A DNA stretch of 64,000 nt, taken from positions 5,263 through 69,262 of the forward strand of contig CALVQH010000001.1 of assembly GCA_944358115.1 (NCBI GenBank), written 5' to 3'. The DNA comes from an uncultured Bacilli bacterium. Its GTDB lineage: Bacteria > Bacillota_I > Bacilli_A > RF39 > UBA660. The notes below the pieces were generated by a model, which was given only the letters and a program-made list of their open reading frames with translations, did not search any database and was not told the DNA's origin. Below are positions 16,462 through 50,261 of the stretch, piece by piece (within the stretch, counting starts at the first letter, position 1; every line of letters starts with the position of its first letter). The position numbers were made by a program, and so were the translations under genes.

Positions 16462-16490
16462 TTGACGAACGTATGTATTTACAGTATAAT
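16462..16490 (+). promoter_or_regulatory. Sigma-70-type promoter for tnpB
   Basis: TTGACG, 17-nt spacer, TATAAT; about 20 nt upstream of the GGGGTGA RBS. Confidence 0.6.
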
Positions 16491-16509
16491 ACTATTATCA
16501 GGGGTGATT

Positions 16510-17652
16510 ATGATTATGAAAATACACAGGGCATATCAATTTCGTTTGTATCCAACAAAAGAACAAGAAGTAATTATTCGTAAAACATTTAGATGTACGA
16601 GATTTGTTTATAATTATTGTTTAGATTTAAAAAAGAAAAATAATTATTTAACTAAGTTTGACTTAATGAAAGAATTACCAAAATTAAAAAAAGAATATCC
16701 CTTTTTAAAAGAAATAGATAGTTGTTCCTTACAAAATGCCATTACAGATTTAATGGTAGGTTTTAGATTGTTTGAAAAAGGCCATGGAGGATATCCTAAG
16801 TTTAAGAAAAAAGGAGTAAAAGAAAGTTTCCGTACTAGTTTTATTACTAGTAGTTATAAAGGTACAATTTATGAAAATATAAAACTAGATTTAAAAAGAA
16901 GAATCATTGAATTACCAAAAATAAAAGAGATTAAAATAAGAGGATATCGTAATTTAGATAAGATTAGTGGAAGAATACTAAATGCCACGATAAGAGAAGT
17001 AGGCACTAGATTTTATGTGTCTGTATGTGTAGAAGAAGAAATCAAGTTACCAGAAAGAAAAAATAATCAAGCAGTAGGAATCGATATAGGAGTAAAGAAC
17101 TTAGTTGTAACAAGTAATAAAGAATATTATGGGAATCCCCGATATTTAGAAAAATATGAAAAAAAGATAAAAAGATTCCAACAAGAATTATCAAGAAAAA
17201 TAAAGGGAAGTAAAAACTATATTAAGTGTAAGAAAAAATTAGAAGAAGTATATCGAAAGCTAAAAAATGCAAGAAAAAAGACAGTAGAAGAAATAGTAGC
17301 CAAAATAATAGCCTTACATGATATTATTATTGCCGAGAATCTCCAAGTAAAGAAAATGTTAGAGCATAAAAATAACCACAAACATTTACGAAAAGAAATC
17401 ACAAATGCTACATTTAGTGAAATCATAAGAGTACTCAAATATAAGTGCAACTGGTTAAATAAGATATTTATTCAAGTAAATCCCTATTATGCAAGTAGTC
17501 AGATTTGTAGTGGATGTGGAAATAAAGAAAGTATTATGAAAGATATAAGAGTAAGAGAATATAAATGTAGTAAATGTGGTTTAGAAATAGAGAGAGATTA
17601 CAATGCAAGTTTGAATATATTAAAAGAAGGATTAAGATGTTACAATAATTAA
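16510..17652 (+). CDS. tnpB: TnpB (IS605 OrfB family RNA-guided endonuclease)
   Basis: N-terminal MKIHRAYQFRLYPTKEQ (OrfB_IS605 N-terminus). RuvC-like core. C-terminal zinc finger CSGCG...CSKCG. RBS GGGGTGA before ATG 16510. Confidence 0.85.
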   Translation: MIMKIHRAYQFRLYPTKEQEVIIRKTFRCTRFVYNYCLDLKKKNNYLTKFDLMKELPKLKKEYPFLKEIDSCSLQNAITDLMVGFRLFEKGHGGYPKFKKKGVKESFRTSFITSSYKGTIYENIKLDLKRRIIELPKIKEIKIRGYRNLDKISGRILNATIREVGTRFYVSVCVEEEIKLPERKNNQAVGIDIGVKNLVVTSNKEYYGNPRYLEKYEKKIKRFQQELSRKIKGSKNYIKCKKKLEEVYRKLKNARKKTVEEIVAKIIALHDIIIAENLQVKKMLEHKNNHKHLRKEITNATFSEIIRVLKYKCNWLNKIFIQVNPYYASSQICSGCGNKESIMKDIRVREYKCSKCGLEIERDYNASLNILKEGLRCYNN

Positions 17653-30248: not shown

Positions 30249-30377
30249 ATTTAACCTCTTTCTATCCTCCTAATGATAACATAAAAAAGTATGAAATTCA
30301 ATTGCTTATCACCAAGTTCTATGTTATAATGAATTAAATTGATAAATATTTTTTGGCATGAAAGTAGGGATACTAGA

Positions 30378-32621
30378 ATGAACACAGAAGAATTAAGACA
30401 AACATTATTTGAAATGATTGAGGAAGGAAGAAATTTATCACTTTCTGAAACAGAATTAGTTCCTCATACGGAAGTAAGAGTAAAAAAGGGTAAGACACAA
30501 GATTTTTTAAATTTGGCAAAAGAGTATTATCAAAGACAAATAAAAGAAGAAGAAGCCTTAAATTATGTTTTAAAAGATTTAAAAGAACCGGAAGAAGAAA
30601 ATCTATTAGAAGATAAGGAAAACAATATATATAAAAAGGATTTTCAAAAATTAGAAGAACTAAATAAAAGTTTAGAATTAAATGCGAAAGATAGAGCAAA
30701 ATATCAGAAAGCCAAAGACGATCTAAGTAAAAGAGCAGAACAAGATCCTGGAATCTGGAGTGAGATAAGAAATCTTCAAGATTTAATAAAATCCTTAGAA
30801 GATGAAAAAAGAGAAATACAAAATAATATTGCTAAAATAAAAGATGAGATTAATAATCGTGTAAAAGCTTTAGTAGAAGAAAGAATGAATACTCTAAGAG
30901 AACGCTATCTTGCTTCTAAACCCAAAGATCATGAGACCGGTTATGATGATGCTTTTATTTTAAAAGAAGATAAAGAAGAATATGATGATTTATATTTATT
31001 ATTAAAAGTAATCGAAAATGCAAGGGAAGACCTTCCTTTGATAAATATTGATAATCTTATATGTGTAAACCCTCATCAAGAAGCAACCGCTCACATATTA
31101 ACCTCAAGACTCTCAATATTAAAAAGTTTAAATCCAGAAATAAAGCCATTAAAAAAGCCCCAACTATTGGAATTAAACGAAGAATTGACAAAAGAAATTG
31201 CAATGGAATTAGCAACACTAATTAAACATGCTAAAGATCACCCTGAAGAACCTTTAGCCGAAGGCAAAGAAGTATTAGCAAGTGATTTAGAAGAGTATAA
31301 TTTACTAGCAAAACAATTTGAAATATTGACCATGGTTTATGATACGGATACCTTGACAATGATAGGAAAGGCCAAAATACCAATTGAAAAAGAAGAAGAA
31401 TACAAACGTGTTTGCACGAAACTAGAAGCATTAAGAAAATTAAAGGAAGAAGCAAATGCTCACACTGAAAAAATAGAACCAACGGAAGGAAAAGGAAAGA
31501 AAAATCCCGCAAGCAAGTTAGAACATAAAGATACAAAAGAAAACAAAAATTTACCAGTAAAAGAGCAACTAAAAAGAAAAGCAGTAAAAATGATTCGCAA
31601 GGCAAAGAATCAAGAATGGTGGCAGAAAAATGGTAAAAAAGTAGTTGGTGTTGGTTTATCTCTAGCTGTTGCAGCTTATTCTCTTACCACACTTGCTCCT
31701 ACCGTTATTTATGCAACCAGCTGTTTATCTTTAGCAAATCCAGCTTTAGCAGGAGCTATTAATAGCTTTAATGCTAGTTTAATTAATGGACTAGGTCTTT
31801 CACTAGGATCTCTAAACTTAAATATTGCCGCAGCGAATGTAGGAGCAGCCATGCTTACCAGTTTAGTGAAATTAGGCCTCATCGGTGGAGGACTTGCCGC
31901 AGCAAACAAAATTATCAAAACGGAAGAAATGCAAAAACTACCTGATCCTGAAAGAAAAACACTTACACAAAAATTAATAAATTTAGGTGATCAAATCATT
32001 GGTAAAACAAAAGAAGTAGCTTCCACTCTTACTGATAAAGTATCTACCTTGACTGAAAATCTGGCCTATGCTACAGATGGCCCAAACATCAATTTAGTAA
32101 ATGAAGGCATTAAAGCAAAAATCGAGGCGGATAGCAATATTGAGTCTTTAGATGATGATGCAACATTTAAGGAAATACAAGAAGGGGTAACAAAGCAAAT
32201 CGCAGAACAAGAAAGTAAGCTAGAAGAAGAAGCGCAAAAAAGAAAAGCCATTGAAGATCGAATTAATGAAAGATTTAATAGTATTAAGCATGATGAAGCA
32301 GCAATTTATATCAAACCTACTAATATTGCCCCTCCAAAAGTGGAAGAAAAACTTACCCCACCGGTAATTAAACTTCCATCTGATGAAGAAATCATGCAAT
32401 CAATTAGTACAGAAAATCTAAATTTAGCGCGGATAGATAATTATTTAGAGGCAATGCAAGAAAATGATTTTATGACTGCTCGTAATCTTCAAAGTCTCAT
32501 TCTAGGTGAAACTGGAATCAATGTTGGCGAATATGATATAAAGGAAGAAGCGGAAATAAACCGCTTGAGGGAAGATATCTTAAATGCTACAAATAATAAA
32601 GAAGAAAAGAGGACTAGGTAA
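30378..32621 (+). CDS. Large coiled-coil protein with central Gly/Ala-rich hydrophobic segment
   Basis: K/E-rich heptad-like N- and C-terminal halves. The central ~100 aa (VVGVGLSLAVAAY...GLIGGGLAAANKII) is hydrophobic and low-complexity. ATG at 30378 behind a GGGA RBS. Confidence 0.4.
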   Translation: MNTEELRQTLFEMIEEGRNLSLSETELVPHTEVRVKKGKTQDFLNLAKEYYQRQIKEEEALNYVLKDLKEPEEENLLEDKENNIYKKDFQKLEELNKSLELNAKDRAKYQKAKDDLSKRAEQDPGIWSEIRNLQDLIKSLEDEKREIQNNIAKIKDEINNRVKALVEERMNTLRERYLASKPKDHETGYDDAFILKEDKEEYDDLYLLLKVIENAREDLPLINIDNLICVNPHQEATAHILTSRLSILKSLNPEIKPLKKPQLLELNEELTKEIAMELATLIKHAKDHPEEPLAEGKEVLASDLEEYNLLAKQFEILTMVYDTDTLTMIGKAKIPIEKEEEYKRVCTKLEALRKLKEEANAHTEKIEPTEGKGKKNPASKLEHKDTKENKNLPVKEQLKRKAVKMIRKAKNQEWWQKNGKKVVGVGLSLAVAAYSLTTLAPTVIYATSCLSLANPALAGAINSFNASLINGLGLSLGSLNLNIAAANVGAAMLTSLVKLGLIGGGLAAANKIIKTEEMQKLPDPERKTLTQKLINLGDQIIGKTKEVASTLTDKVSTLTENLAYATDGPNINLVNEGIKAKIEADSNIESLDDDATFKEIQEGVTKQIAEQESKLEEEAQKRKAIEDRINERFNSIKHDEAAIYIKPTNIAPPKVEEKLTPPVIKLPSDEEIMQSISTENLNLARIDNYLEAMQENDFMTARNLQSLILGETGINVGEYDIKEEAEINRLREDILNATNNKEEKRTR

Positions 32622-32890
32622 TGGAAAAAGAAGATATTATTACACTTGAAGATAATACCGAGTATATGGTGCTAGATACAGCTCTTTTAAATCAAGAAAA
32701 ATATTTATATTGTGTGCGAATAGATGAAGAAGAAAAACCAACAAGTGAATATAAATATTTTAAAGAGATTAATGAAAATAATGAATTATTCACGGAAGAA
32801 GTAGAAGATGAAGTCGTGATTGAAACCATTACTTCTATGTTCGCCGCTGATTATTTAAATAGTGTAACAGACGAAGAACAAGACGTTTAA
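32621..32890 (+). CDS. DUF1292-like small acidic protein
   Basis: MEKEDIITLEDNTEYMVLDT...YLYCVRIDEE pattern. Confidence 0.45.
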   Translation: MEKEDIITLEDNTEYMVLDTALLNQEKYLYCVRIDEEEKPTSEYKYFKEINENNELFTEEVEDEVVIETITSMFAADYLNSVTDEEQDV

Positions 32891-36270: not shown

Positions 36271-37425
36271 ATGAATTTAAATGATTTAAAAGTAAGCGGT
36301 ACCAACCAAATAGAATTAAACGATTCTCTAAAAACATCACTATTAAGTCTAAAAATATCATTAAATGAAAGTACCCAAATCCCTAGTAATAACGAATTAA
36401 CTATTTATGTCGATACAAGTTCTACTCCAACCGAAAATAGAAAAACTTATACATTTCAATTAGATAATGCTTTATCTATAGGAGACGAATTTATTATGGA
36501 ACCAGTTATTACAGATAAAAATATTGAACTAAAAGCATATGTGAAAAGGAGTACAAATGATATCGAAGAAATAGAATATCAAAATATTTTATTATTTGCA
36601 GGAACAAACTATATCTATACCAATTATGAAAATGCTACTATAGATATAATGTATCCTAAAAATAATGATTTAGTAAAATATTATTTAAATAACATTTTAT
36701 ATAGTTTAAATAATAAAAATAAAATACTTAGTTTAGATGATATTTATTTCAAAGATGCTTTTACTGAGGTAGATGATAAGTTGAATGCAGCTTTAAATAA
36801 TTTAAGCATTGATTGCCTTACATCCAATAATAACAAATTTAGTTTAGATAGTGATGGTAATTTAACAGTTAATAGCCTAACAACTACTGTTTCATCATCA
36901 GCAGATTTAGATTTTAATGAAATTTATCCAATTGGCTCTGTTTATTTAAGTGTTAATTCAACAAATCCAAGTGTTTACTTTGGAGGAACTTGGGAACAAA
37001 TTAACGGTTATTATCTATATGCTGGAAATACTAATAATACTGGTGGTAGTAGTTTAACAGGAGAAGCATCTGGAAATACAGGATCTACAACATTAACTGC
37101 AAATCAAATTCCAAGCCATAGCCATTCAATTCCTTCACTAAATGGTACGGCCTCTTCGAATGGATCCCACACTCACAATATCGGCGCTGATTTTGATGGA
37201 GGGGCCGGAAGTGCACGTTACACTGTTCATTCAAGAGGAACAAGTGGAGCAGGATATTTAATGGCAACGTCTTCTTCTGGAGCACATACTCATAGTGTAA
37301 GCACAAATGCAAGCAATACAGGTTCATCTGGAGGTACATCAAGTCATACACACTCATTAAATAATCATACTCACACAATTAATCCACCATTTTATAGTTT
37401 ATTTGTATTTAAAAGAACCGCTTAA
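36271..37425 (+). CDS. Phage tail-fibre-like protein with HxH metal-binding fibre tip
   Basis: IYPIGSVYLSVNS...GGTWEQI plus five HxH repeats (SHSHSI, SHTHNI, AHTHSV, SHTHSL, NHTHTI) like the T4 gp37/gp12 needle. Gly/Ser/Thr-rich. Confidence 0.6.
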   Translation: MNLNDLKVSGTNQIELNDSLKTSLLSLKISLNESTQIPSNNELTIYVDTSSTPTENRKTYTFQLDNALSIGDEFIMEPVITDKNIELKAYVKRSTNDIEEIEYQNILLFAGTNYIYTNYENATIDIMYPKNNDLVKYYLNNILYSLNNKNKILSLDDIYFKDAFTEVDDKLNAALNNLSIDCLTSNNNKFSLDSDGNLTVNSLTTTVSSSADLDFNEIYPIGSVYLSVNSTNPSVYFGGTWEQINGYYLYAGNTNNTGGSSLTGEASGNTGSTTLTANQIPSHSHSIPSLNGTASSNGSHTHNIGADFDGGAGSARYTVHSRGTSGAGYLMATSSSGAHTHSVSTNASNTGSSGGTSSHTHSLNNHTHTINPPFYSLFVFKRTA

Positions 37426-37509
37426 AAAAACATCTTTTGATGTTTTTTTAGTTATTTGCCAATGCCATATTCTAAAAAGTACATAAACTAACTATGGGAA
37501 GGAGGCATT

Positions 37510-37875
37510 ATGAAAAATATTAAAGGCTACGTAAATATGAAAACTGATTTAAACCTTATTCTTTTAAGAATACAATTTTTAGAAGAAAAAGAAAAGCAAA
37601 TAAATAAAGAAAAAGTATCTCTTGAAGAATTAAAACAAAAATTAACAAATATTTTAAATCAAACGGAAGAAAAATTGAAAGAGTTAAAAGGGATAGACAG
37701 AGAATTGTTTTATGAAATAATGGTAAAAGGAACCAATGTAACAAGAGCAGTAGATAAAGTATCAATTACATATGATGTTGATCCATCAACGATTTGGAAG
37801 TATTACTATCCTAAAATAAAAGAAGACATCAAAAAATTAGAAAAAGAAATAATGTCTAGCGAGATTCTAGTATAA
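37510..37875 (+). CDS. Small coiled-coil hypothetical protein
   Basis: ORF only; lies between the fibre-like gene and the RHS gene. Confidence 0.3.
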   Translation: MKNIKGYVNMKTDLNLILLRIQFLEEKEKQINKEKVSLEELKQKLTNILNQTEEKLKELKGIDRELFYEIMVKGTNVTRAVDKVSITYDVDPSTIWKYYYPKIKEDIKKLEKEIMSSEILV

Positions 37876-37905
37876 ACTTTCATATTTATATATCGGGGTG
37901 AGAAT

Positions 37906-40900
37906 ATGAAAGAATTAAAACATCTTCGTAAACAAAATGAAAAACAATTCTTAAATGATGATGGGTCTATTTCCCTATATCTCTATAACAATGATATTCA
38001 TTATTTAAAAAATGGTGAATATCTAGAAATTGATAATACACTCGTTGAGGAAGAAAATAACATCATTAATAAAGAAAATAATTTTCATACACGTTTTACG
38101 AAAGATACAAAAACAAATTTATTAGTAGATATTACCAAAGATAATTATTATCTAAAAATTTATTTAATGAAATCAAAAAATAATGCAATGAATATGAAGA
38201 AAAATAAAAACAATATAAAACTAGAAAATATCTTAGAAGATATAGATATTGATTATCATGTAATATCGACACAATTAAAGGAAGCTATTATTTTAAAAAA
38301 TAAAAATAATATTCCTACCTCTTTATCTTTTAAAGTAGATACTAACCTAGATTTAGAAGTGGAAGAAAAGGGAAGTGTTCTAGCAAAAGATAAAGAAAAA
38401 CCAATTTTTGTAATTGCAGCACCTTTTATGAAAGATAATAAAGGAACATACAATTACAAGATAAAATACGATTTAAGTTTAAAAGATGATACGTATATCT
38501 TAAACTTAAATTTAGATCAAGAATGGTTAAATGAAGCAGAGTTCCCTGTAGTAATTGATCCAACAATTGTAAATCCGGACGAAGAAGATCCAGAAAATGT
38601 ATATGATGCATATATAAGCTCGAGTCTTCCTGATATGAATATGAATACTCACGAGGAACTATACGTTGGTTCGAATTCAACTAGAACAACAAGAACATTA
38701 TTAAAGTTTAAACTTCCAACAATTGGTACAGGATATGATATTGTAAATGCCACAGCGTATCTAAATAGCGAATTTATGTCTTTAAATGGTAAAACAATTA
38801 ACGTTCATGAGATAACTAACGATTGGAATGAAGCAACAGTTACTTGGAATAGTATCTATGATAAGTATAATTCAAAAATCGAAGAGTATTTTTATGAACA
38901 AAGAACGGTACAAAGTGAGAAAATATTCCCGTTCAATATTACCAATTTAGTCAAAAAATGGTATGCGGGTAATCCTAATTATGGCCTCATGTTAAAGTTA
39001 AATGATGAAACGCCAAATGATGACAATGATAGTTACATCTTTTATTCTAAAACTTATGATGGTTTAAATGAAACAGGATTAAGGCCTTATTTAGCCATTA
39101 CTTATCGTAATCAGAATGGCCTAGAGGATTATATGACTTATCAAACACAAGAATACACAGATGGTGCAAGCTATATCAATAATTTAACTGGTAATCTAAC
39201 CACTACATTCAATTTAAATGAAACAATAGGGGGTAAATATCCAATTGGTTTAAGTCTAGTTTATAATACGAATGATATGGTTTTAAATAATAACTATGGT
39301 TATCAATCTGGATACAAATTAAATTTACATGAAACAATAAAAGAAGTAACAATAGACCTAAATAATTACTTAGAATATATAGATGCTGATGGTACAATCC
39401 ATTACTTTCGAAATGAATTAGATGAAGAAGGAGAAAAAATTGATAATAAGTACATAGATGAAGATGGATTAGGCCTAAACGCTACAAAAGAAACAAATAA
39501 AGTAATAATAGAAGATATAAATAGTAATAAATATGAATTTTCTTTAAATAATAATATTTATTATTTAACCAAATTAACAAATACAAATAATGATAGTGTA
39601 ACAATAACATATGATACAAATAACCGAATCAATAAAGTAACAGATGCCAATAATTCTAGCATCAATATTACATATAATACAAATAATATGATTATTACCA
39701 GTGATAGCACAACAACAACAGTCAATTATACAAATAATAAAGTAACTAGTATAATAAGTAAAAATGGTACCACCAATTTTACTTATAATAATTATGGCTT
39801 AATTAGTAAAATTACCGATGTAAATGGATTAAGTAAAGCTTTTAATTATTATGATGTAAGTCCATATAAAATAAAAAAAGTAATAGAATATGGCTTAAAT
39901 GATGAAGAAGGAGCTTCTCTAGAATTTGAATACGGCTTTTTAGTTACAAGAGTAAAAGATAATAAGGATCGATATAATACCTATATTTTTAACGAACAAG
40001 GAAATACAATTGGTTTTACGAATTTAGATGAAGAAGCAAATTTAAATAATGCTTATGGAAAAGGTGTAGTTTATGAAAATACCACAATTTATAAAGAAAA
40101 TAATGGTACCTATTTTGAAGATATAAATCGAGCAGGAAATAAATTGAAAAATGAAATATTAGCAGTTAAATACACGAAAAATTTAATTAAAAATAGTAGT
40201 TTTGAAGATGCAGAAACATTCTTTATTGGAACTAGAACAACGGAAGAAAAAAGAACTGGAAGTTATAGTTTAAAATTTTCTGATTATTGCTATTTTGAAG
40301 ATCCATCTCTTCCGCCGCGAGGAAAAAATTATACTTTTAGTGGATACTTTAAAAATGATAAAACCTTAACCATGAGCTTAGAAAGAAGAGGATTAAATAA
40401 AACGGATACTTTAGATATAATATCTATTCCTCCAAATGAAGATTTTACAAAATATAGCGTGACGGGTGATTATCCTTCTTCTGAAGAAGAAGGCGGATAT
40501 ATTTCAGTAACGATAACTTCAAATGAAAAAGGAACAGCCTATTTAGATGATGTACAACTTGAAGAAGGAGAAATTGCTAATTATTATAATATGTTAGAAA
40601 ATGGTGATTTCCATGATGGATTAACTGGATGGAATGCAAGTGCCTATGATCGTGAAGGAAATAGTATTAATAATGTAGCAAGTGTAGTAACATTAGAAAA
40701 TGGCGTAAAAGCTTTAAAAATAGCTTCTAATCCTGATTTAGATATTGCTGTTTCCACTACTTTAAAAGTAAATGGAATTGGTGATTTATCGGAAGATAGA
40801 ATAGGAGACTTATATAATTTATCATTCTGGTATAAAAACGAAGGATTACCAAAGGGCGGAACAGGAATGGAATATAGTAATTCTGTATTATTAAGCTTTT

Positions 40901-43900
40901 ATTATACCAACGTACCTGAAGGTGAAGGGTACGGAATTGATCCTATTGGTTTAACTTCTCATAGTAATGAATGGCAATATTTCTCAGCTCCATTCCCAAC
41001 AGATAGTTTATATAATTATGATACCATCGCTTTAACCATATTATCAAATTATAATGCCAATAACTTATATATTACCAATATTTCTTTATCAAAAGATATA
41101 GAACAAAATTATAATTATCATAATAGTGAAACTGGTAATTTAGAGGGAATTAGAAACATGGATAGTTCTCATGCTAGTTTCACTTATGATGAAAATAATC
41201 AATTAACAAGTATGTTTAATCCATTAGGTAATAACTTTAAATTTGAATACGATAATGTGGTAACAGATCGTATATTAAAAGGAATATCACCATCAGGAAT
41301 ATCGAATGAAATTTTATATGATGAATTTGGTAATCCTAAAAAAACAATCATCAATAATGTCAATCCAGATCAAGATATTATGGATGGTAAAACTTATTAT
41401 ATTCGTTTAAAAGGTTCACAAGAATATTGGGATAGTAATTTTATAACAAATGAGATTTTATTAAAAGAAGATAATTGTAGTCATGATACTTACACTCTTT
41501 TAAAAGAGGGTGAATACTTCCGAATAAAAAGTGGGAATGAGTATGTAACACTCATAAATGATTCAATTGGTTTAACCAAGTTAATGACTGATGATTCTTT
41601 GTTCAGATTTTTCCTCCAAAACAACAATAGTTACATCATCATTCCCAAAACCAAAGATAATACATTACTAGAACACAATCTAGCAAATGTAAATGGTAAA
41701 ATTTCTTTAAAAACAAGTGATACCAAAGAATATGAAGAGCAATTTTATTTTGAAGATATTGATACGCAATTGTTTATTGAATCAAAAGCGGAATATACTG
41801 AAGATGGAAAGTTTGTTACCCAAACAATCGATTCTTTAGGCAAAGTTACATCTTATGATATTAATACCACCAATGGTTTAACTAATAGTATTACTGATGC
41901 AAACAACATAACAACTTACTATACTTATAATACTAAAGATCAAATAACCAAAGTAAAGAAAGAAAACAAAGAAGTAAACTATGATTATAATAGCAATAAT
42001 TTACTATCAAAAATAACTTCAAATAACAAAGAATATAACTTTACTTATGATAATTTCTTAAATTCCAAACAAATAAAAATAGGAGACAATATTACTCTTA
42101 TTACTAATAATTATGAAAATAATAATGGGAATCTTCTATCAAGTGTTTATGGTAATGGTGATACATTTAGTTACACTTATGATGAACTTGATAGAATTAA
42201 AACAATGACAAATGATGCTAGTACCTATACATATCATTATGATAATTTGGGCAATTTAGCTAAAATAACAAGTATAAGTGAAAATTATAATTATTATTAT
42301 GACTTATCTAATAGGATTAGCAAATACCTAGTCAATAACTTTAATATTGAGTATGACTATGATTCGAATAATAATATACTTAAGAAAGAGTATACATTAA
42401 ATGATAAAGAAACAGTTACTTTTGAATATAACACCGATGATGCAATAACCAAAGTAACATTCGATAATAATAATTTAAATTATGCTTATGATTATCTAGG
42501 AAGATTAACTAGTAAAGATATAAATGGCAATCAAAAGATAGAGTATACATACATAACAAATGGTAATAAAACTTCTACTGTATTAAAATCCATGAAAATA
42601 AATAATGATTTATATGAATATTATTATGATCATCTATATAATATCACAGATATTTATTTAAATAATAAATTAATTAATCATTATGAGTATGATAATTTTA
42701 ATGAACTAATTAAAGAAGATAGCTATAGTTTAAACAAAACAATAAGATATACTTATGATAATGCTGGAAACATATTAAAGAAACAAGAATACGAATTAGA
42801 TACTTATAATTTATTACATACAGATACTTATGAATATAATAATGTTAATTGGGAAGGCCAATTGACAAAATATAACAATGAATCAATTACTTATGATGCT
42901 ATAGGTAATCCATTAACCATAGGAAATAAAACACTAACTTGGGTAAATGGTAGACAACTAGCAAGTTATACCGATGAAAGTCTAAATATTTCTTATACTT
43001 ATAATAAAGATGGAATAAGAACAGAGAAAGTAATAAATAATACAAAAACTAATTACTTTACAGAAAATAATAAGATAATATTTGAACAAACAGGAAATAA
43101 TATGGTATACTATATACGAGATGAGGAAGGAAGTTTAATAGGATTTAAATATAATAATACACTTTATTATTATATAAAAAACATGCAAGAAGATATCATA
43201 GGAATAACGGATAGTAATTATAACTTAGTATGCAGTTATGAATATGATTCATGGGGAAAACTAATATCCATTAAAGATAATAATGGAAACATTATTACTA
43301 ATACATCTCATATAGGTTATATCAATCCATTTAGATATAGGTCATACTATTATGATAATGAAACAAAGTTGTATTATCTAAATAGTAGATACTATAATCC
43401 AGAATGGGGTAGATTTATTAATGCAGATAGATTTATAAGCACAGATACAGGTATAATTGGCTTCAATATGTATGCTTATTGTAATAATGAGCCAATATCA
43501 AGAAAAGATTATAGTGGAAGTTTCTTCGGACTAGTTTTTGGAATGTTTGCAGTTACAGCTGGAATTATTCTTGGTGCAGAGATTATTGATAATAATAATA
43601 AAAAACAAAATAAAAAAGCTAAAAAAGAAATAGAAGAAGTGCAAAAAAAACACAATGTTTGTCCAATAGAAGAAAATAAAAATTTTAAAGAAACTTTAAA
43701 AACTAATGCAAAAAAAGTTCAAAATGATACTCAAAATATGAATTATATAGAAAGACTAAACTATTTAAGAGAAAATGCAAATGATGGTCAAAAATTCGAT
43801 TTAAAACTATTTACAAAAGATACAATATTTTATGACGGTATGTATATGGAACCACAAGATATCGGTAACTATCACTTTGGGTACATAGGTAGAGCTGCAG

Positions 43901-44070
43901 GCATTCAAACTTGGGTTTTATTAAAGGGTGCCTCAGTAAATCAAATAAAGAAAATGAATTGGGAAGTATTTAAAAATTGTTTTACTACATCTTTCTGCGA
44001 CGATCCTAGAGATCAATATTTTATAAAAATGGGAGCGATAGCATATGATAAAGAACATAAAAATAAATAG
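37906..44070 (+). CDS. RHS/YD-repeat polymorphic toxin (2054 aa) with DNRLRE-like N-terminal domain and variable C-terminal toxin domain
   Basis: Dozens of YD repeats (YTYD.NGN., YDxxGRL). Canonical RHS core end RYYNPEWGRFINADRF followed by NMYAYCNNEPI. N-terminal DAYISSSLPDMNMNTHEELYVGSNS...LLKFKL matches the DNRLRE domain. No signal peptide. A TM helix (FFGLVFGMFAVTAGIILG) follows the core. Confidence 0.85.
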   Translation: MKELKHLRKQNEKQFLNDDGSISLYLYNNDIHYLKNGEYLEIDNTLVEEENNIINKENNFHTRFTKDTKTNLLVDITKDNYYLKIYLMKSKNNAMNMKKNKNNIKLENILEDIDIDYHVISTQLKEAIILKNKNNIPTSLSFKVDTNLDLEVEEKGSVLAKDKEKPIFVIAAPFMKDNKGTYNYKIKYDLSLKDDTYILNLNLDQEWLNEAEFPVVIDPTIVNPDEEDPENVYDAYISSSLPDMNMNTHEELYVGSNSTRTTRTLLKFKLPTIGTGYDIVNATAYLNSEFMSLNGKTINVHEITNDWNEATVTWNSIYDKYNSKIEEYFYEQRTVQSEKIFPFNITNLVKKWYAGNPNYGLMLKLNDETPNDDNDSYIFYSKTYDGLNETGLRPYLAITYRNQNGLEDYMTYQTQEYTDGASYINNLTGNLTTTFNLNETIGGKYPIGLSLVYNTNDMVLNNNYGYQSGYKLNLHETIKEVTIDLNNYLEYIDADGTIHYFRNELDEEGEKIDNKYIDEDGLGLNATKETNKVIIEDINSNKYEFSLNNNIYYLTKLTNTNNDSVTITYDTNNRINKVTDANNSSINITYNTNNMIITSDSTTTTVNYTNNKVTSIISKNGTTNFTYNNYGLISKITDVNGLSKAFNYYDVSPYKIKKVIEYGLNDEEGASLEFEYGFLVTRVKDNKDRYNTYIFNEQGNTIGFTNLDEEANLNNAYGKGVVYENTTIYKENNGTYFEDINRAGNKLKNEILAVKYTKNLIKNSSFEDAETFFIGTRTTEEKRTGSYSLKFSDYCYFEDPSLPPRGKNYTFSGYFKNDKTLTMSLERRGLNKTDTLDIISIPPNEDFTKYSVTGDYPSSEEEGGYISVTITSNEKGTAYLDDVQLEEGEIANYYNMLENGDFHDGLTGWNASAYDREGNSINNVASVVTLENGVKALKIASNPDLDIAVSTTLKVNGIGDLSEDRIGDLYNLSFWYKNEGLPKGGTGMEYSNSVLLSFYYTNVPEGEGYGIDPIGLTSHSNEWQYFSAPFPTDSLYNYDTIALTILSNYNANNLYITNISLSKDIEQNYNYHNSETGNLEGIRNMDSSHASFTYDENNQLTSMFNPLGNNFKFEYDNVVTDRILKGISPSGISNEILYDEFGNPKKTIINNVNPDQDIMDGKTYYIRLKGSQEYWDSNFITNEILLKEDNCSHDTYTLLKEGEYFRIKSGNEYVTLINDSIGLTKLMTDDSLFRFFLQNNNSYIIIPKTKDNTLLEHNLANVNGKISLKTSDTKEYEEQFYFEDIDTQLFIESKAEYTEDGKFVTQTIDSLGKVTSYDINTTNGLTNSITDANNITTYYTYNTKDQITKVKKENKEVNYDYNSNNLLSKITSNNKEYNFTYDNFLNSKQIKIGDNITLITNNYENNNGNLLSSVYGNGDTFSYTYDELDRIKTMTNDASTYTYHYDNLGNLAKITSISENYNYYYDLSNRISKYLVNNFNIEYDYDSNNNILKKEYTLNDKETVTFEYNTDDAITKVTFDNNNLNYAYDYLGRLTSKDINGNQKIEYTYITNGNKTSTVLKSMKINNDLYEYYYDHLYNITDIYLNNKLINHYEYDNFNELIKEDSYSLNKTIRYTYDNAGNILKKQEYELDTYNLLHTDTYEYNNVNWEGQLTKYNNESITYDAIGNPLTIGNKTLTWVNGRQLASYTDESLNISYTYNKDGIRTEKVINNTKTNYFTENNKIIFEQTGNNMVYYIRDEEGSLIGFKYNNTLYYYIKNMQEDIIGITDSNYNLVCSYEYDSWGKLISIKDNNGNIITNTSHIGYINPFRYRSYYYDNETKLYYLNSRYYNPEWGRFINADRFISTDTGIIGFNMYAYCNNEPISRKDYSGSFFGLVFGMFAVTAGIILGAEIIDNNNKKQNKKAKKEIEEVQKKHNVCPIEENKNFKETLKTNAKKVQNDTQNMNYIERLNYLRENANDGQKFDLKLFTKDTIFYDGMYMEPQDIGNYHFGYIGRAAGIQTWVLLKGASVNQIKKMNWEVFKNCFTTSFCDDPRDQYFIKMGAIAYDKEHKNK

Positions 44071-44620
44071 AAAGAAAATTGTTATTGCTGGTATTCTAAT
44101 TGTATTAATAGCGTTATTAATAATTCCAATAATAGTTATTATGATACTTTTTGTTGATGGCCTTAAAGAGAATGCTATTGATAAAAAGGCTATGGAATAT
44201 GAAAGTGAAGAAAAGCGCTTAGAATACTTTTTAGAAAATGAAGAATACCTTAATAAATTAGCAAACTATTTTATAGAATATCCAGAACTTGATAGAATAG
44301 GAAAAAACATTTGGTGTTCTAATGCCGATGAACCAACATATGAATTGAATGATATAACAATTTGTACTTATAAAAAATTAGAAAATCTACCAATTAAAGA
44401 TATTGTAGAAATATATAAAAAAACAAACCTTTCAATTGTTGGTAGAAGGAATGACTGTATTGCATTTTATTTATACATAACAACATATCATGATGTTTGC
44501 TATAATTATTATTTCACTTCTTCAAAAAGTGAATATATAAAATATGATTATGGGATAATTGAAGAAAATGAAATAAATGAGAATTGGAGTAGTATGTTTT
44601 CAAATATTCCTTATGATTAA
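44045..44620 (+). CDS. Putative cognate immunity protein (N-terminal TM, 191 aa)
   Basis: Overlaps the last 26 nt of the RHS gene, the typical toxin-immunity arrangement. TM helix IVIAGILIVLIALLIIPIIVIMILF. Confidence 0.5.
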   Translation: MIKNIKINRKKIVIAGILIVLIALLIIPIIVIMILFVDGLKENAIDKKAMEYESEEKRLEYFLENEEYLNKLANYFIEYPELDRIGKNIWCSNADEPTYELNDITICTYKKLENLPIKDIVEIYKKTNLSIVGRRNDCIAFYLYITTYHDVCYNYYFTSSKSEYIKYDYGIIEENEINENWSSMFSNIPYD

Positions 44621-44838
44621 AAACAAGCAATATTAGAACTAATGTAATCAGTTTACACTAGTTCTTTTTATATATTTGAATAAACAGATAATAATATGGC
44701 ATAAGAATAAAATGCGTTAGCGTATGATGAAAATTCGCAAACATGCCTTTTGATTAAAGAATAAAAAAATTCAATATCATAGTACAATCGCCAACTCGTG
44801 TGTTCTCTTTTTTTCATACAATAAATAGGAGGAAGAAT

Positions 44839-45234
44839 ATGGAACATATATATAATGTAATCTCTTATTTATTGGGTGGAATTGATGCACCGATCATTGT
44901 CTTATTAATTACCATGGTCTATGTCTATCTAACGGGTTGGTGCAAAGTAATATTTTGCCATAAAATGAATAAATTAGTAGGCTTAAAAGGTATCATTCGT
45001 GATCTTGGCTATTTAATGATTGTGTCTTTATCGGTATTATTAGATCGTTTAATGGGAAGTGCGGAAGCGATAAGAACAATCGTTATTTATTTCTTTGTTG
45101 CCCATGAAGGTTTATTAATTTTAAAATGTTGGTGTAAAATGGGACTTCCTCTACCACAAAAAATATATAACACGCTAGAAAATTTATTAGGAGAGGAGGA
45201 ATCTGATGGCAACTCTACTGAACGTGAAGAATAA
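44839..45234 (+). CDS. Holin (phage_holin_4_1 / TcdE-like family)
   Basis: Three TM segments. The conserved YL.G.D.P...LL..M..DY.TG and GL.LP pattern of the family. RBS TAGGAGGAAG before ATG 44839. Confidence 0.65.
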   Translation: MEHIYNVISYLLGGIDAPIIVLLITMVYVYLTGWCKVIFCHKMNKLVGLKGIIRDLGYLMIVSLSVLLDRLMGSAEAIRTIVIYFFVAHEGLLILKCWCKMGLPLPQKIYNTLENLLGEEESDGNSTEREE

Positions 45235-45958
45235 TGTCTTAAAGAGGGGAAAGCATTACTTAACAAGTGACTATAAAACAAGAAATGAATCGAGAAGCAC
45301 CCATAATGGCATGGATTTGGTAGGACAAAATGGAGTAGATGATATTGTAGCCATAGAATCGGGAACCGTAACTTATACTGGTTATGATGCAAGTGGCGGT
45401 GGATACTGGATATCGATTACGACAAATGGGATAGAGCATCGTTATTTTCATTTAAAAAAAGGATCACTAAAAGTAAAGAAAGGCGATCGTGTAACCAAAG
45501 GTGATGTCATAGCAACCATGGGTGATTCTGGAAATGCTACGGGAAATAATCTTCATTTTGCTATTTATAAAAATGGTTATATTGACCCAAAACCATATTT
45601 AATGAATGATAATCCTTTTAATGTAGAAAGTAATGATGCTTACACCACATTTATTCGTGATTTACAAAAGGCAATCGGTACCAATGTAGACGGGATTGCT
45701 GGACCGGAAACACTATCAAAAACCCCAACCATATCAACAAGTACCGGCTGGAATCATGCCGCTGTTAGACCTTTACAAATTTATTTACAAAACTTAGGAT
45801 ATGATTTAGGAAGTAAAGGTGTAGATGGTCAGTTTGGAAAAGATATGAAGGCCTGTATTAAAAAGTACCAAAAAGATGTAGGTTTAGCATCAAAATACCA
45901 AGATGGTATTGTAACTGCTAAAATGTATACTTGGCAAAAATTATTAAAATTAAATTAA
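45206..45958 (+). CDS. M23 peptidase (LytM-type endopeptidase) with two peptidoglycan-binding repeats; endolysin-like
   Basis: HNGMDL...D...HLHFAI M23 signature. C-terminal PG_binding_1-like repeats (VDGIAGPETL, VDGQFGKDM). Overlaps the holin gene. Confidence 0.75.
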   Translation: MATLLNVKNNVLKRGKHYLTSDYKTRNESRSTHNGMDLVGQNGVDDIVAIESGTVTYTGYDASGGGYWISITTNGIEHRYFHLKKGSLKVKKGDRVTKGDVIATMGDSGNATGNNLHFAIYKNGYIDPKPYLMNDNPFNVESNDAYTTFIRDLQKAIGTNVDGIAGPETLSKTPTISTSTGWNHAAVRPLQIYLQNLGYDLGSKGVDGQFGKDMKACIKKYQKDVGLASKYQDGIVTAKMYTWQKLLKLN

Positions 45959-45986
45959 GAGCTTTATTTGTTAAGCTCTTTTTTTA
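45957..45986 (+). terminator. Rho-independent terminator
   Basis: aagagctt-tatttgtt-aagctctt hairpin plus T6. Confidence 0.65.
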
Positions 45987-49523: not shown

Positions 49524-50261
49524 ATGAGAACCAAAGAATTAGAAAATTTGAAACAAGAGTTTTTAAGAATTAAAAATATGGGGTATGTTAAAAGTACTAG
49601 ATCCGGTGTTACCGGAGTAGGCAAAACATTTGAAGATTTGCTGGGAAAAGAAGAAGATACAAAAGGAACTCCAGACTACCATGGCATTGAATTGAAAACA
49701 AAATTAGGATATAGTCAGTCTTATACAACACTCTTTAATTCTACGCCAGAGGGAGAATTGGAAACACAAAGACTATGTAAAGAATATGGCTATCCAGATA
49801 AAATTCTAAGGGATAAAAAAGTGTTAAATGTTTCAATTACTACAACACCAATTTTAGTAGCAAATCGATATTTTTTTAATTTAAAGGTAGATTACAATAT
49901 GAAAAAATTAATTTTAATAATTAAAAATAAATATGGTAAGATTTTAGAAAATAAAGTATACTGGAGTTTTGGAACATTAAAGGAAAAATTAAATACAAAA
50001 TTACAATATGTTGCATTAATTAATGCGTGGCCAACAACACGCAATAACGTAACATATTATAAATATTATAAAATTAATTTTTATAAATTAAAAACTTTTG
50101 AAAAATTTATAGAACTAATTGATAAAGGAATAATTCGTATAAGCTTAAAAATAGGAGTATACAGAACTGGAACCAAAAAAGGATTATACCATGATCGTGG
50201 AACAAGTTTTGAATTAAAAACTTTTGATTTTTATCAATTATTTGAACATATTTATATATGA
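49524..50261 (+). CDS. MvaI/BcnI-family (MutH-like) restriction endonuclease-like protein, apparently orphan
   Basis: N-terminal GVTGVGKTFEDLLGKEED...PDYHGIELKTK and C-terminal GLYHDRG resemble BcnI as recalled from memory. No adjacent methyltransferase. Confidence 0.45.
   Translation: MRTKELENLKQEFLRIKNMGYVKSTRSGVTGVGKTFEDLLGKEEDTKGTPDYHGIELKTKLGYSQSYTTLFNSTPEGELETQRLCKEYGYPDKILRDKKVLNVSITTTPILVANRYFFNLKVDYNMKKLILIIKNKYGKILENKVYWSFGTLKEKLNTKLQYVALINAWPTTRNNVTYYKYYKINFYKLKTFEKFIELIDKGIIRISLKIGVYRTGTKKGLYHDRGTSFELKTFDFYQLFEHIYI

Follow-up and report, generated by a model that had tools for sequence, protein, structure and literature searches.

A candidate phage-derived RHS bacteriocin cassette with a tail-fibre partner and adjacent lysis genes in uncultured Bacilli

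Introduction

How RHS toxins of more than 200 kDa leave Gram-positive cells, and how they then enter a rival through its thick wall, is an open question. The exit routes discussed for Gram-positive RHS proteins are the Sec-dependent, wall-anchored route of WapA and a predicted type VII secretion system (T7SS) (PMC12704120, PMC10327511). The question is raised by an island on contig CALVQH010000001.1 of an uncultured Bacilli bacterium, of which a 64-kb stretch, here called the window, was analysed. The island, at positions 36271-45958 of the window, consists of six co-directional open reading frames (ORFs) on the plus strand, which encode a short tail-fibre protein (FIB), a small coiled-coil protein (cc), an RHS polymorphic toxin, an immunity protein, a holin and a peptidoglycan (PG) hydrolase. 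With moderate confidence, we interpret this island as a domesticated, phage-derived, fibre-targeted and lysis-released RHS bacteriocin cassette. The family to which it belongs would offer a third, directly testable route, with phage lysis genes for the exit and a receptor-binding fibre for the targeting. No description of a fibre-RHS-lysis cassette was found in searches of full-text literature, and the word holin is absent from a 2012 survey of the trafficking modes of polymorphic toxins.

Results

The gene order proposed in an earlier note on this DNA was borne out, as all six ORFs lay on the plus strand where it had placed them, and their domains were confirmed with Pfam, NCBIfam and PHROG. 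All coordinates below refer to the plus strand of the window unless another locus is named. The largest gene of the island (37906-44070) encodes a protein of 2054 aa with RHS repeats (PF05593, 1.1e-27; TIGR01643; NF041261). A DNRLRE domain with the fold of a carbohydrate-binding module (CBM) occupies residues 233-399 (38602-39102; NF033679, 1.9e-28), and an RHS-associated core at residues 1780-1871 (43243-43518; TIGR03696, 6.6e-17) marks the boundary before the variable toxin. The core is followed by a hydrophobic helix at about residues 1873-1895 and by a C-terminal Ntox44 toxin domain at residues 1957-2049 (43774-44052; PF15607, 1.8e-12). The next gene (44045-44620) was assigned to a 191-aa immunity protein on the basis of its position, an N-terminal transmembrane (TM) helix and a 26-nt overlap with the end of the RHS gene at its stop codon.

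The earlier note had also claimed that the RHS protein carries no Sec or Tat signal. Indeed, its hydrophilic N-terminus (MKELKHLRKQNEKQF...) is conserved across the family, and the first 60 residues contain no hydrophobic stretch; here and below, the absence of a signal peptide was judged from a hydrophilic N-terminus or the lack of such a stretch. The RHS protein gave no match to LysM, SLH or LPXTG either.

A scan of GTDB with one genome per species gave at least 575 confirmed RHS matches, and the best 73 loci, numbered with the prefix L, were fetched. The homologues amounted to 568 for RHS at E<=1e-10 and to more than 620 for the fibre. Source names of the RHS homologues included uncultured Bacilli, "Tenericutes", Ruminococcus and Firmicutes genomes. 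Nearly all of these proteins were about 2050 aa in length and aligned over about 92% before diverging at the C-terminus, which is the pattern of polymorphic toxins; the toxin tips of the family include Ntox44, Tox-WTIP and others. Orphan toxin/immunity arrays were present in L002 and L010. In L014, from Mycoplasma sp. CAG:776, the RHS protein has a different tip, glycine-rich and glycine-zipper-like, and the 191-aa gene of the window has been retained there as an orphan copy with 76% identity. This copy lent independent support to the immunity assignment, and implies that species of the L014 type would meet Ntox44-armed relatives in nature. The orphan immunity copies, one or two of them at 76% identity, lie at L014:16320-17686 and L002:16341-20111. 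The polymorphism of the tips, together with the orphan arrays and with orphan immunity genes in other species, shows an interbacterial arms race. Judged by its sequence, in which every defining feature tested was found, the window protein is a bona fide RHS polymorphic toxin. As a separate observation, a group II intron domain (RF02001, 49.7 bits) was detected immediately downstream of the RHS gene in L072 (12568-12738).

The N-terminal region of the RHS protein (residues 1-470) was modelled with AlphaFold2 (AF2), giving a mean predicted local distance difference test score (pLDDT) of 71.5. Residues 233-399 were predicted to form a beta-sandwich, for which Foldseek retrieved a chondroitin-binding CBM (8wab) and an alginate-binding CBM96 (7vbo), both with E 6e-6. 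Residues 45-225 form a confidently predicted beta domain with no clear relative. The first 42 to 45 residues or so are almost invariant in the family, and the segment of residues 1-42 (37906-38031), which has invariant columns in the family alignments, showed a pLDDT below 50. As this segment is conserved yet disordered when modelled alone, it was regarded as a candidate partner-binding segment that may dock to the neck of the fibre.

The fibre gene (36271-37425) encodes FIB, a short tail-fibre or receptor-binding protein of 384 aa (Pfam Gp10_C, 1.3e-12; PHROG tail fibre, 2.5e-20). Its parts are an N-domain, a neck with a conserved motif (DDIYFKDAFT...LDSDGNL) and a Gp10_C head, and five HxH motifs are visible in its C-terminal part. 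No signal peptide was found in FIB, the N-terminus of which is hydrophilic. The head showed 29% identity to the antireceptor of Lactobacillus phage LL-Ku/PMBT4 and 53% identity to tail proteins of Blautia/Faecalimonas phages. In the RHS-associated fibres, the neck motif ([DE]DIYFKDAFT...C[IL]TS..N.F.LD..GNL.V) preceding the Gp10_C head is strongly conserved.

A census of neighbours was made by calling ORFs in all loci, searching with hidden Markov models (HMMs) built from the window and from two distant loci, and clustering the neighbouring proteins. The fibre formed the largest neighbour cluster of RHS, with 77 members in 66 loci. When the species-level loci with at least 1.5 kb of upstream sequence were counted, FIB was encoded directly upstream of RHS in 59 out of 67. 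The eight exceptions were two frameshifted RHS genes with the fibre further upstream, two loci that were truncated or rearranged, and the four RHS proteins that had diverged most (28-33% identity). In a reciprocal check, all three fibre homologues picked regardless of their context (41-52% identity) preceded an RHS protein of 2000-2100 aa. The fibre, treated as mere context in the earlier note, is thus a near-universal partner of RHS, and FIB is probably part of the weapon. With regard to the N-terminal domain of the window's long fibre (36271-36750; motif F.G.NYIYTN..N..I.I), we observed that it exists as a separate ORF of about 110 aa just upstream of the short fibre in L021, L034 and L065, so that the domain is either fused to the fibre or free-standing.

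Downstream of the immunity gene, a gene at 44839-45234 encodes a holin of 131 aa with three predicted TM segments and a charged tail (Phage_holin_4_1, PF05105, 2.6e-25; TIGR01593, "toxin secretion/phage lysis holin"). Its start was placed at the ATG at 44839 behind an AGGAGG ribosome-binding site (RBS), and not at the listed GTG at 44800. The last gene (45206-45958) encodes a PG hydrolase with a Peptidase_M23 domain (7.8e-22) and two PG_binding_1 repeats, about 30% identical to endolysins of the same architecture in a database of cultured phages. This enzyme has no signal peptide, and a lysin of this kind needs a holin of its own. The holin gene adjoins the RHS cargo, as in type 10 secretion; no spanin gene was found in the island, nor is one expected in a cell without an outer membrane. 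Four orthologues at 84-100% identity share a His-to-Asn change in the M23 domain, weighed in the Discussion, and this conservation suggests that an attenuated or altered M23 activity is under selection.

The linkage to lysis genes was counted in the 42 loci with at least 4 kb of upstream and 6 kb of downstream sequence (well-sampled loci). Lysis genes abutted the cassette in 22 of them, a lower bound that the true figure would exceed only slightly, and 19 of these 22 carried both a holin-like gene and an enzyme. The possibility raised in the earlier note that RHS homologues might never lie beside holin or endolysin genes was contradicted by these counts. The linkage is frequent without being obligatory, as about half of the loci do not have it. 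The lysis genes followed the immunity gene or orphan array in 15 loci and preceded the fibre in seven, and two further loci had lysis genes only far away. The holin-type genes comprised holin_4_1, an XhlA-like TM/coiled-coil protein together with a small two-TM protein, and holin_5_2-like proteins; the enzymes were canonical M23, an M23-like domain with CW_7/LysM, or GH25. By their sequences, the lysis parts appear interchangeable and non-orthologous, which makes the lysis module a frequent, exchangeable accessory. Ten candidate neighbours in the lysis-less loci were also checked for other lysins, and gave one SH3_3 protein, the rest being housekeeping proteins.

The cassettes were found at unrelated chromosomal sites amid housekeeping genes such as cysS, mutS, sporulation sigma genes and spoIIIAH, and their hosts are almost all uncultured gut Bacilli and Clostridia. 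Its repeated occurrence in dozens of species and at differing sites of the chromosome places the arrangement far beyond chance. Tail genes accompanied the cassette in only three of 71 species-level loci (L044, L045 and L048), and in the IMG/VR viral contigs L086 and L087. The phage-borne order, of a siphophage, is tail genes, holins and lysin, followed by the short fibre, RHS and immunity genes. The tail module includes a major tail protein, a 652-aa fibre and a tape-measure-like protein, recognised by eye and with no annotated PHROG match. This 652-aa fibre, the phage's own, has only the core of the neck motif, and the short FIB lacks the N-terminal part of about 440 aa that the phage's own fibre possesses. 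In the cultured-phage database no close relative of RHS was found, the best match being 30% identical on unannotated faecal contigs, and the lysin had no close relative there either.

Selection and divergence were measured against the syntenic island of L014. The amino acid identity and dN/dS (ratio of nonsynonymous to synonymous substitution rates) were 73% and 0.19 for FIB, 74% and 0.20 for cc, 73% and 0.19 for the RHS body, 83% and 0.16 for the holin, and 84% and 0.11 for M23. The flanking genes gave 69% and 0.21 (ileS) and 81% and 0.13 (nfeD). The values of the island genes match those of the flanks, indicating that the island has been vertically inherited and kept functional. On this sequence comparison, the island is as old as the species split and is not a decaying remnant. 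The values for holin and M23 also spoke against the possibility, named in the earlier note, that these two are pseudogenes.

The gene between FIB and RHS (37510-37875) encodes cc, a coiled-coil protein of 121 aa with no family match and no sequence relatives in the PDB. The description in the earlier note as a small coiled-coil ORF was correct as to the coiled coil, and has to be extended: the predicted fold, a long coiled-coil helix plus a sigma-region-4-like three-helix helix-turn-helix (HTH), adds a probable role as a regulator. From this model, cc is probably a sigma-4-like DNA-binding regulator of the cassette. A fibre-assembly chaperone, as gp57A is in phage T4, was considered as an analogy for cc; such a role is less favoured, being disfavoured by the predicted sigma-4-like HTH and by the co-occurrence of cc with the DNA element described next.

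A conserved promoter-like element, CTAGYR-N5-YMAGTR-N10-TAT, was recognised ahead of the fibre genes. From 19 sites of other species, with the window excluded from the training set, a position weight matrix (PWM) was made, and 3.6 Mb of loci were scanned at a cut-off of >=22 bits. In all 28 matches, the start of a fibre, RHS or holin gene follows at a distance of 17-143 nt. The window holds exactly two sites. P1 (36206-36243; CTAGCAC-N-CAAGTA, then TTCATAT; 27.4 bits) is located 28 nt upstream of FIB, and P2 (37853-37890; 26.1 bits) falls within the 3' end of cc and precedes the RHS start by 16 nt; the next-best site scored 5.8 bits. Orthologous second copies before RHS were present in L002, L012, L014 and L097, and such copies also occurred in L010, L013, L015, L018 and L019. 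In L050 and L061, an identical element (CTAGTG-N5-TCCAGTA-N10-TAT) precedes both FIB and the holin gene. The strict pattern was present in 17 of the 18 loci carrying cc, with a near-match in the eighteenth. Among the loci lacking cc, the element was seen in the truncated L023 (29.5 bits) and as a doubtful match with a spacer of 6 in L068, and the others were without it. A shared promoter was also sought before the window's holin, and the PWM gave no site there; only a loose likeness of the -10/RBS-proximal stretch was noticed by eye, and it was not relied on.

In other lineages, the fibre gene is preceded by a gene for a 160-aa protein designated SIG, which resembles sigma region 4 at its C-terminus (FliA, 7e-7) and has a novel N-terminus. 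No SIG gene was found in the window with an HMM built from the relatives, and the idea that cc is a homologue of SIG was rejected (hhalign probability 0.1%). In all five SIG-type loci scanned with Rfam, the leader between SIG and the fibre contains the pemK RNA motif (RF02913, 38-53 bits against a gathering score of 34.8), at L006:9168-9246, L052:9212-9270, L068:8678-8735, L072:4994-5071 and L082:2391-2468. The SIG-fibre leader is a new and consistent genomic context for this orphan cis-regulatory RNA, to which the main text of a 2017 paper describing 224 candidate structured RNAs (PMC5737381) devotes no discussion.

Close to SIG/FIB on the upstream side, two additional genes were met repeatedly, namely in L030, L036, L037, L042, L052, L055, L068 and L082. 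The product of the first, some 260 aa long, is an XRE-type HTH protein tethered to the membrane (HTH_3, 2.8e-11, then a TM segment). That of the second, some 250 aa long, begins with a signal-peptide-like sequence and matched no family; the two may constitute a sensing module for the cassette. In L025, L043, L054 and L076, a second SIG copy and one or two large serine recombinases were found a few kb downstream of the cassette, and a SpoIVA gene or fragment adjoins in several loci (among them L043, L068, L071 and L074), the recombinase and SpoIVA genes having been recognised by eye from the sequence. This suggests that some cassettes reside on small integrative elements near or within spoIVA.

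The island of the window is flanked by ileS with its T-box leader on one side and by nfeD/SPFH/UDG on the other, and is closed by an intrinsic-terminator-like hairpin with a T-run (45957-45980). The remainder of the window is housekeeping, and its other large ORFs are mutL, gltX, dinB, aldehyde dehydrogenase, phosphoketolase and an IS605 TnpB. The G+C content is about 29% throughout, so that composition does not set the island apart. No genes for capsid, terminase, tube or sheath, baseplate, tape measure or integrase were found in the 64 kb. The statement of the earlier note that the locus is neither a prophage nor a tailocin therefore stood for the window; it did not extend to some of the relatives, in which the fibre-RHS-immunity triad is cargo of intact siphophage prophages. 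Type VI secretion system (T6SS) and T7SS genes were absent from the window as the earlier note had stated: apart from RHS, no ORF is longer than the 1030-aa ileS, so EssC is absent, and the island proteins gave no Pfam match to LXG/WXG100 domains or partners. Rfam detected only the ileS T-box and tRNAs in the window, with no structured RNA in the island. A role in anti-phage defence was considered and rejected, as none of the six proteins was matched by PADLOC. The exact RHS protein also occurs on an ENA metagenome scaffold with identical gene order, and a fragment with 100% identity was found in the human-gut metagenome-assembled genome "Bacilli bacterium HGM10802" (L077).

Some features of the window lie outside the island. 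Upstream of the ileS T-box, a 760-aa ORF with a TTG start and no Pfam match, together with an overlapping 89-aa ORF, occupies 30339-32890. Its ortholog is 1241 aa long in L002/L014 and more than 1900 aa in L010, indicating a large, fast-changing protein kept at this site. The TnpB of the IS605 family (16462-17652; OrfB_IS605 with a Cas12f1-like TNB domain) has no relation to the island. The precomputed annotation of the identical scaffold shows a MvaI/BcnI-type restriction endonuclease domain (PF15515) at 49524-50261, beside two tRNA genes and a few kb downstream of the island.

Discussion

In the interpretation that we favour, the core of the weapon would comprise FIB as a short trimeric phage receptor-binding protein, the signal-less RHS cocoon of about 2050 aa and the immunity protein. 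The N-terminal region of RHS would carry the carbohydrate-binding modules and the exchangeable C-terminal tip would be the toxin, here Ntox44, from which the immunity protein would protect the producer. A dedicated regulator, the sigma-4-like cc in the window lineage and the 160-aa sigma-like protein in others, would turn on the promoter-like elements before FIB and before RHS. FIB and RHS, neither of which has an export signal, would then build up in the cytoplasm until the adjacent holin opened the membrane and the signal-less M23/PG_binding hydrolase opened the wall. Either a subpopulation would lyse and so release the cargo, or the cargo would leak out along a non-lytic route like that of TcdE. 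Outside, FIB and the carbohydrate-binding modules of RHS would attach to related bacteria at their surface, where the fibre head and the CBM folds have wall polysaccharides or teichoic acids as candidate targets; the toxin tip would be delivered, and cells without the immunity gene would be killed. As to the origin of the cassette, the prophage-borne versions in L044/45/48 and L086/87 show that it arose from a temperate siphophage, of which the right arm was reduced to the fibre, the lysis genes and the cargo. Holin-dependent release is what we infer by analogy, and a physical complex of FIB and RHS, the regulatory role of cc and the target range are likewise putative.

A more far-reaching version of this interpretation, which we entertain tentatively and would rate as possible but doubtful, is a "tail-less tailocin". 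Here the trimeric fibre would dock on the invariant 40 or so N-terminal residues of RHS, expression would be under the sigma-4-like regulator, release would occur through a private holin/PG-hydrolase pair, and killing would be contact-independent and at a distance.

Several observations weigh against a lysis-released cassette. No adjacent lysis gene was present in 20 of the 42 well-sampled loci, which is in part a matter of detection, several of the lysis-less loci being flanked by rpsB-tsf, hemN or ctpB; as about half of the loci lack it, release cannot rest on a cis-encoded lysis module everywhere. In the window, no PWM site precedes the holin gene, and the immunity and holin genes are separated by a hairpin followed by a U-run (44635-44665; -11.1 kcal/mol, z -2.5), which may act as a terminator or attenuator. 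Because of these two features, co-transcription of the holin with RHS in the window is doubtful, and the lysis pair may be a separate transcription unit in this lineage. The HxH motif of M23 reads N-L-H in the window clade, the first His, kept in 28 of 34 related lysins, being replaced by Asn (residue 115). The activity of the enzyme may thus be low or its role altered; still present are the central His and the Zn ligands, namely HxxxD and the second His of HxH. All host organisms, moreover, are uncultured. For lysis-coupled release as proposed in the earlier note, the phage origin of fibre, holin and lysin and their recurrent linkage held up, whereas the absence of an element before the window's holin and the hairpin preceding it did not fit.

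These observations are also the ground of the main rival, according to which only FIB, RHS and the immunity protein form the functional unit. The holin and hydrolase would be leftovers of a phage vehicle or would serve the cell otherwise, for example in wall remodelling, and the toxin would exit via lysis by a resident prophage, autolysis or an unknown exporter. The lysis-less loci, some of them flanked by housekeeping genes, the hairpin and missing element in the window, and the change of a catalytic His of M23 to Asn all speak for it; in true prophages, furthermore, the triad directly follows the lysis cassette, so that the adjacency could be historical. We nevertheless consider this rival unlikely, as the purifying selection on holin and M23 equals that on the flanking housekeeping genes across about 30% protein divergence, and lysis modules of varied family and order recur beside cassettes that have no other phage gene. 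The same promoter-like element stands before FIB and holin in L050 and L061, and the need of a signal-less lysin for a holin is the logic of a working lysis pair.

It is also conceivable that FIB and RHS are equipment of the phage itself, carried by the virion or co-released, which kills competitors of the lysogen or aids infection, and that the window is an inactive relic. Full-length relatives do occur on IMG/VR viral contigs and in prophages with tail genes, the PHROG family phrog_10385 contains RHS-core proteins, and weak RHS matches were found in faecal "Bacteriophage sp." contigs. With tail genes confined to three of 71 species-level loci, with no structural, replication or integration genes in the window and most relatives, and with the island vertically inherited and under selection, such a reading is improbable; a short FIB without the N-terminal part of about 440 aa could not be mounted on a baseplate as the phage fibre is. 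The gap between tail fibre and lysis cassette and the right end of a prophage are classic insertion points for "moron" cargo. An ordinary RHS toxin-immunity pair might therefore have been inserted in a decaying prophage end among functionally unrelated genes, and the absence of other phage genes from the window would agree with this. Such a coincidence is very improbable and already contradicted by the comparative data, namely the same gene set in dozens of species at several unrelated loci, the near-universal pairing of fibre and RHS, dN/dS of 0.1-0.2 with no pseudogenisation, and the cis-elements common to the cassette genes.

If the bacteriocin interpretation is true, the release logic of type 10 secretion and the Clostridioides difficile pathogenicity locus (PaLoc) extends to antibacterial polymorphic toxins, and the family illustrates the reduction of prophage right arms to bacteriocin cassettes. 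For the engineering of narrow-spectrum antimicrobials against gut bacteria, it would also be a natural source of targeting heads and toxin tips that can be swapped. If the tail-less tailocin is true as well, the exchangeable fibre heads and toxin tips would constitute a modular, programmable bacteriocin platform across the gut microbiome. The family further supplies testable regulatory parts: a sigma-4-like family without previous annotation, a candidate DNA element and the new pemK RNA context.

Comparison with known systems

The Tc toxin of Yersinia entomophaga is released by type 10 secretion with a holin/endolysin/spanin cassette (PMC10847048, PMC10847046). Like the window locus, it combines a very large, signal-less RHS-cocoon toxin (TcC being the RHS protein) with a phage-type lysis cassette nearby; its release takes place in a specialised subpopulation under a dedicated regulator, and a separate receptor-binding protein, TcA, aims the toxin. 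Unlike the window locus, it belongs to a Gram-negative host, includes a spanin and is directed at insects; TcA serves as a pentameric injection device, and TcB and TcC are separate proteins. The window has a single RHS chain and a phage fibre, with polymorphic antibacterial tips and immunity, and its dependence on the lysis genes is putative. No TcA, TcB or SpvB domains were found in or near the window RHS.

The PaLoc and other loci of large clostridial glucosylating toxins (LCGTs) encode the holin TcdE, the endolysin remnant TcdL and the sigma factor TcdR (PMC3369941, PMC12485765, PMC11344133). They share with the window a Gram-positive host and a signal-less giant toxin beside a Phage_holin_4_1 holin and a gene derived from a PG hydrolase, which is full length in the window and a remnant in TcdL. 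An alternative sigma-type regulator is paralleled in the relatives of the window, and the same question of lytic or non-lytic release arises. The PaLoc toxin differs in being a glucosyltransferase aimed at host cells, not an RHS protein, and has no immunity gene and no fibre. No LCGT domains were found in the window, and SIG of the relatives matches sigma region 4 only, so that membership of cc or SIG in the TcdR group is not supported.

WapA-type RHS proteins of Bacillus subtilis and Streptococcus suis (PMC12704120) are, like the window protein, Gram-positive RHS polymorphic toxins with a DNRLRE domain, a variable C-terminus, immunity genes and orphan arrays, and act in interbacterial competition. 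They differ in having a Sec signal peptide and wall-anchoring LysM domains, and in being cell-associated and killing by contact, whereas the window RHS has neither signal nor anchor and is paired with a fibre and, in the family, often with a lysis cassette. Colicins with lysis proteins, S-pyocins and R/F-type tailocins resemble the window in a cytoplasmic weapon with a receptor-binding part, cognate immunity and sacrificial lysis, and such lysis-released bacteriocin clusters likewise have phage-derived parts and are chromosomal and flanked by housekeeping genes. The window differs from tailocins in its lack of a tail tube, sheath or baseplate, in an RHS cocoon instead of a colicin-type translocation domain, and in its Gram-positive producers. 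MuF-fused toxins are prophage-borne polymorphic toxins fused to a head protein. Prophages of Mycobacterium abscessus carry polymorphic toxin-immunity cassettes as cargo (PMC9934374). Toxin-immunity cargo at prophage ends is a likeness of these systems to relatives of the L044/L086 type; unlike the window, they use ESX/WXG export or fusion to the head protein, and none is an RHS protein with its own short fibre.

By the features tested within the window, the RHS protein is not a WapA, a T7SS substrate or a Tc toxin, nor is the locus a tailocin or a prophage. With no spanin, no LCGT and no demonstrated TcdR-type sigma, the locus is a member of neither type 10 secretion nor the PaLoc group, yet by analogy it would work like both, and there is a realistic chance that it represents a distinct class of toxin delivery.

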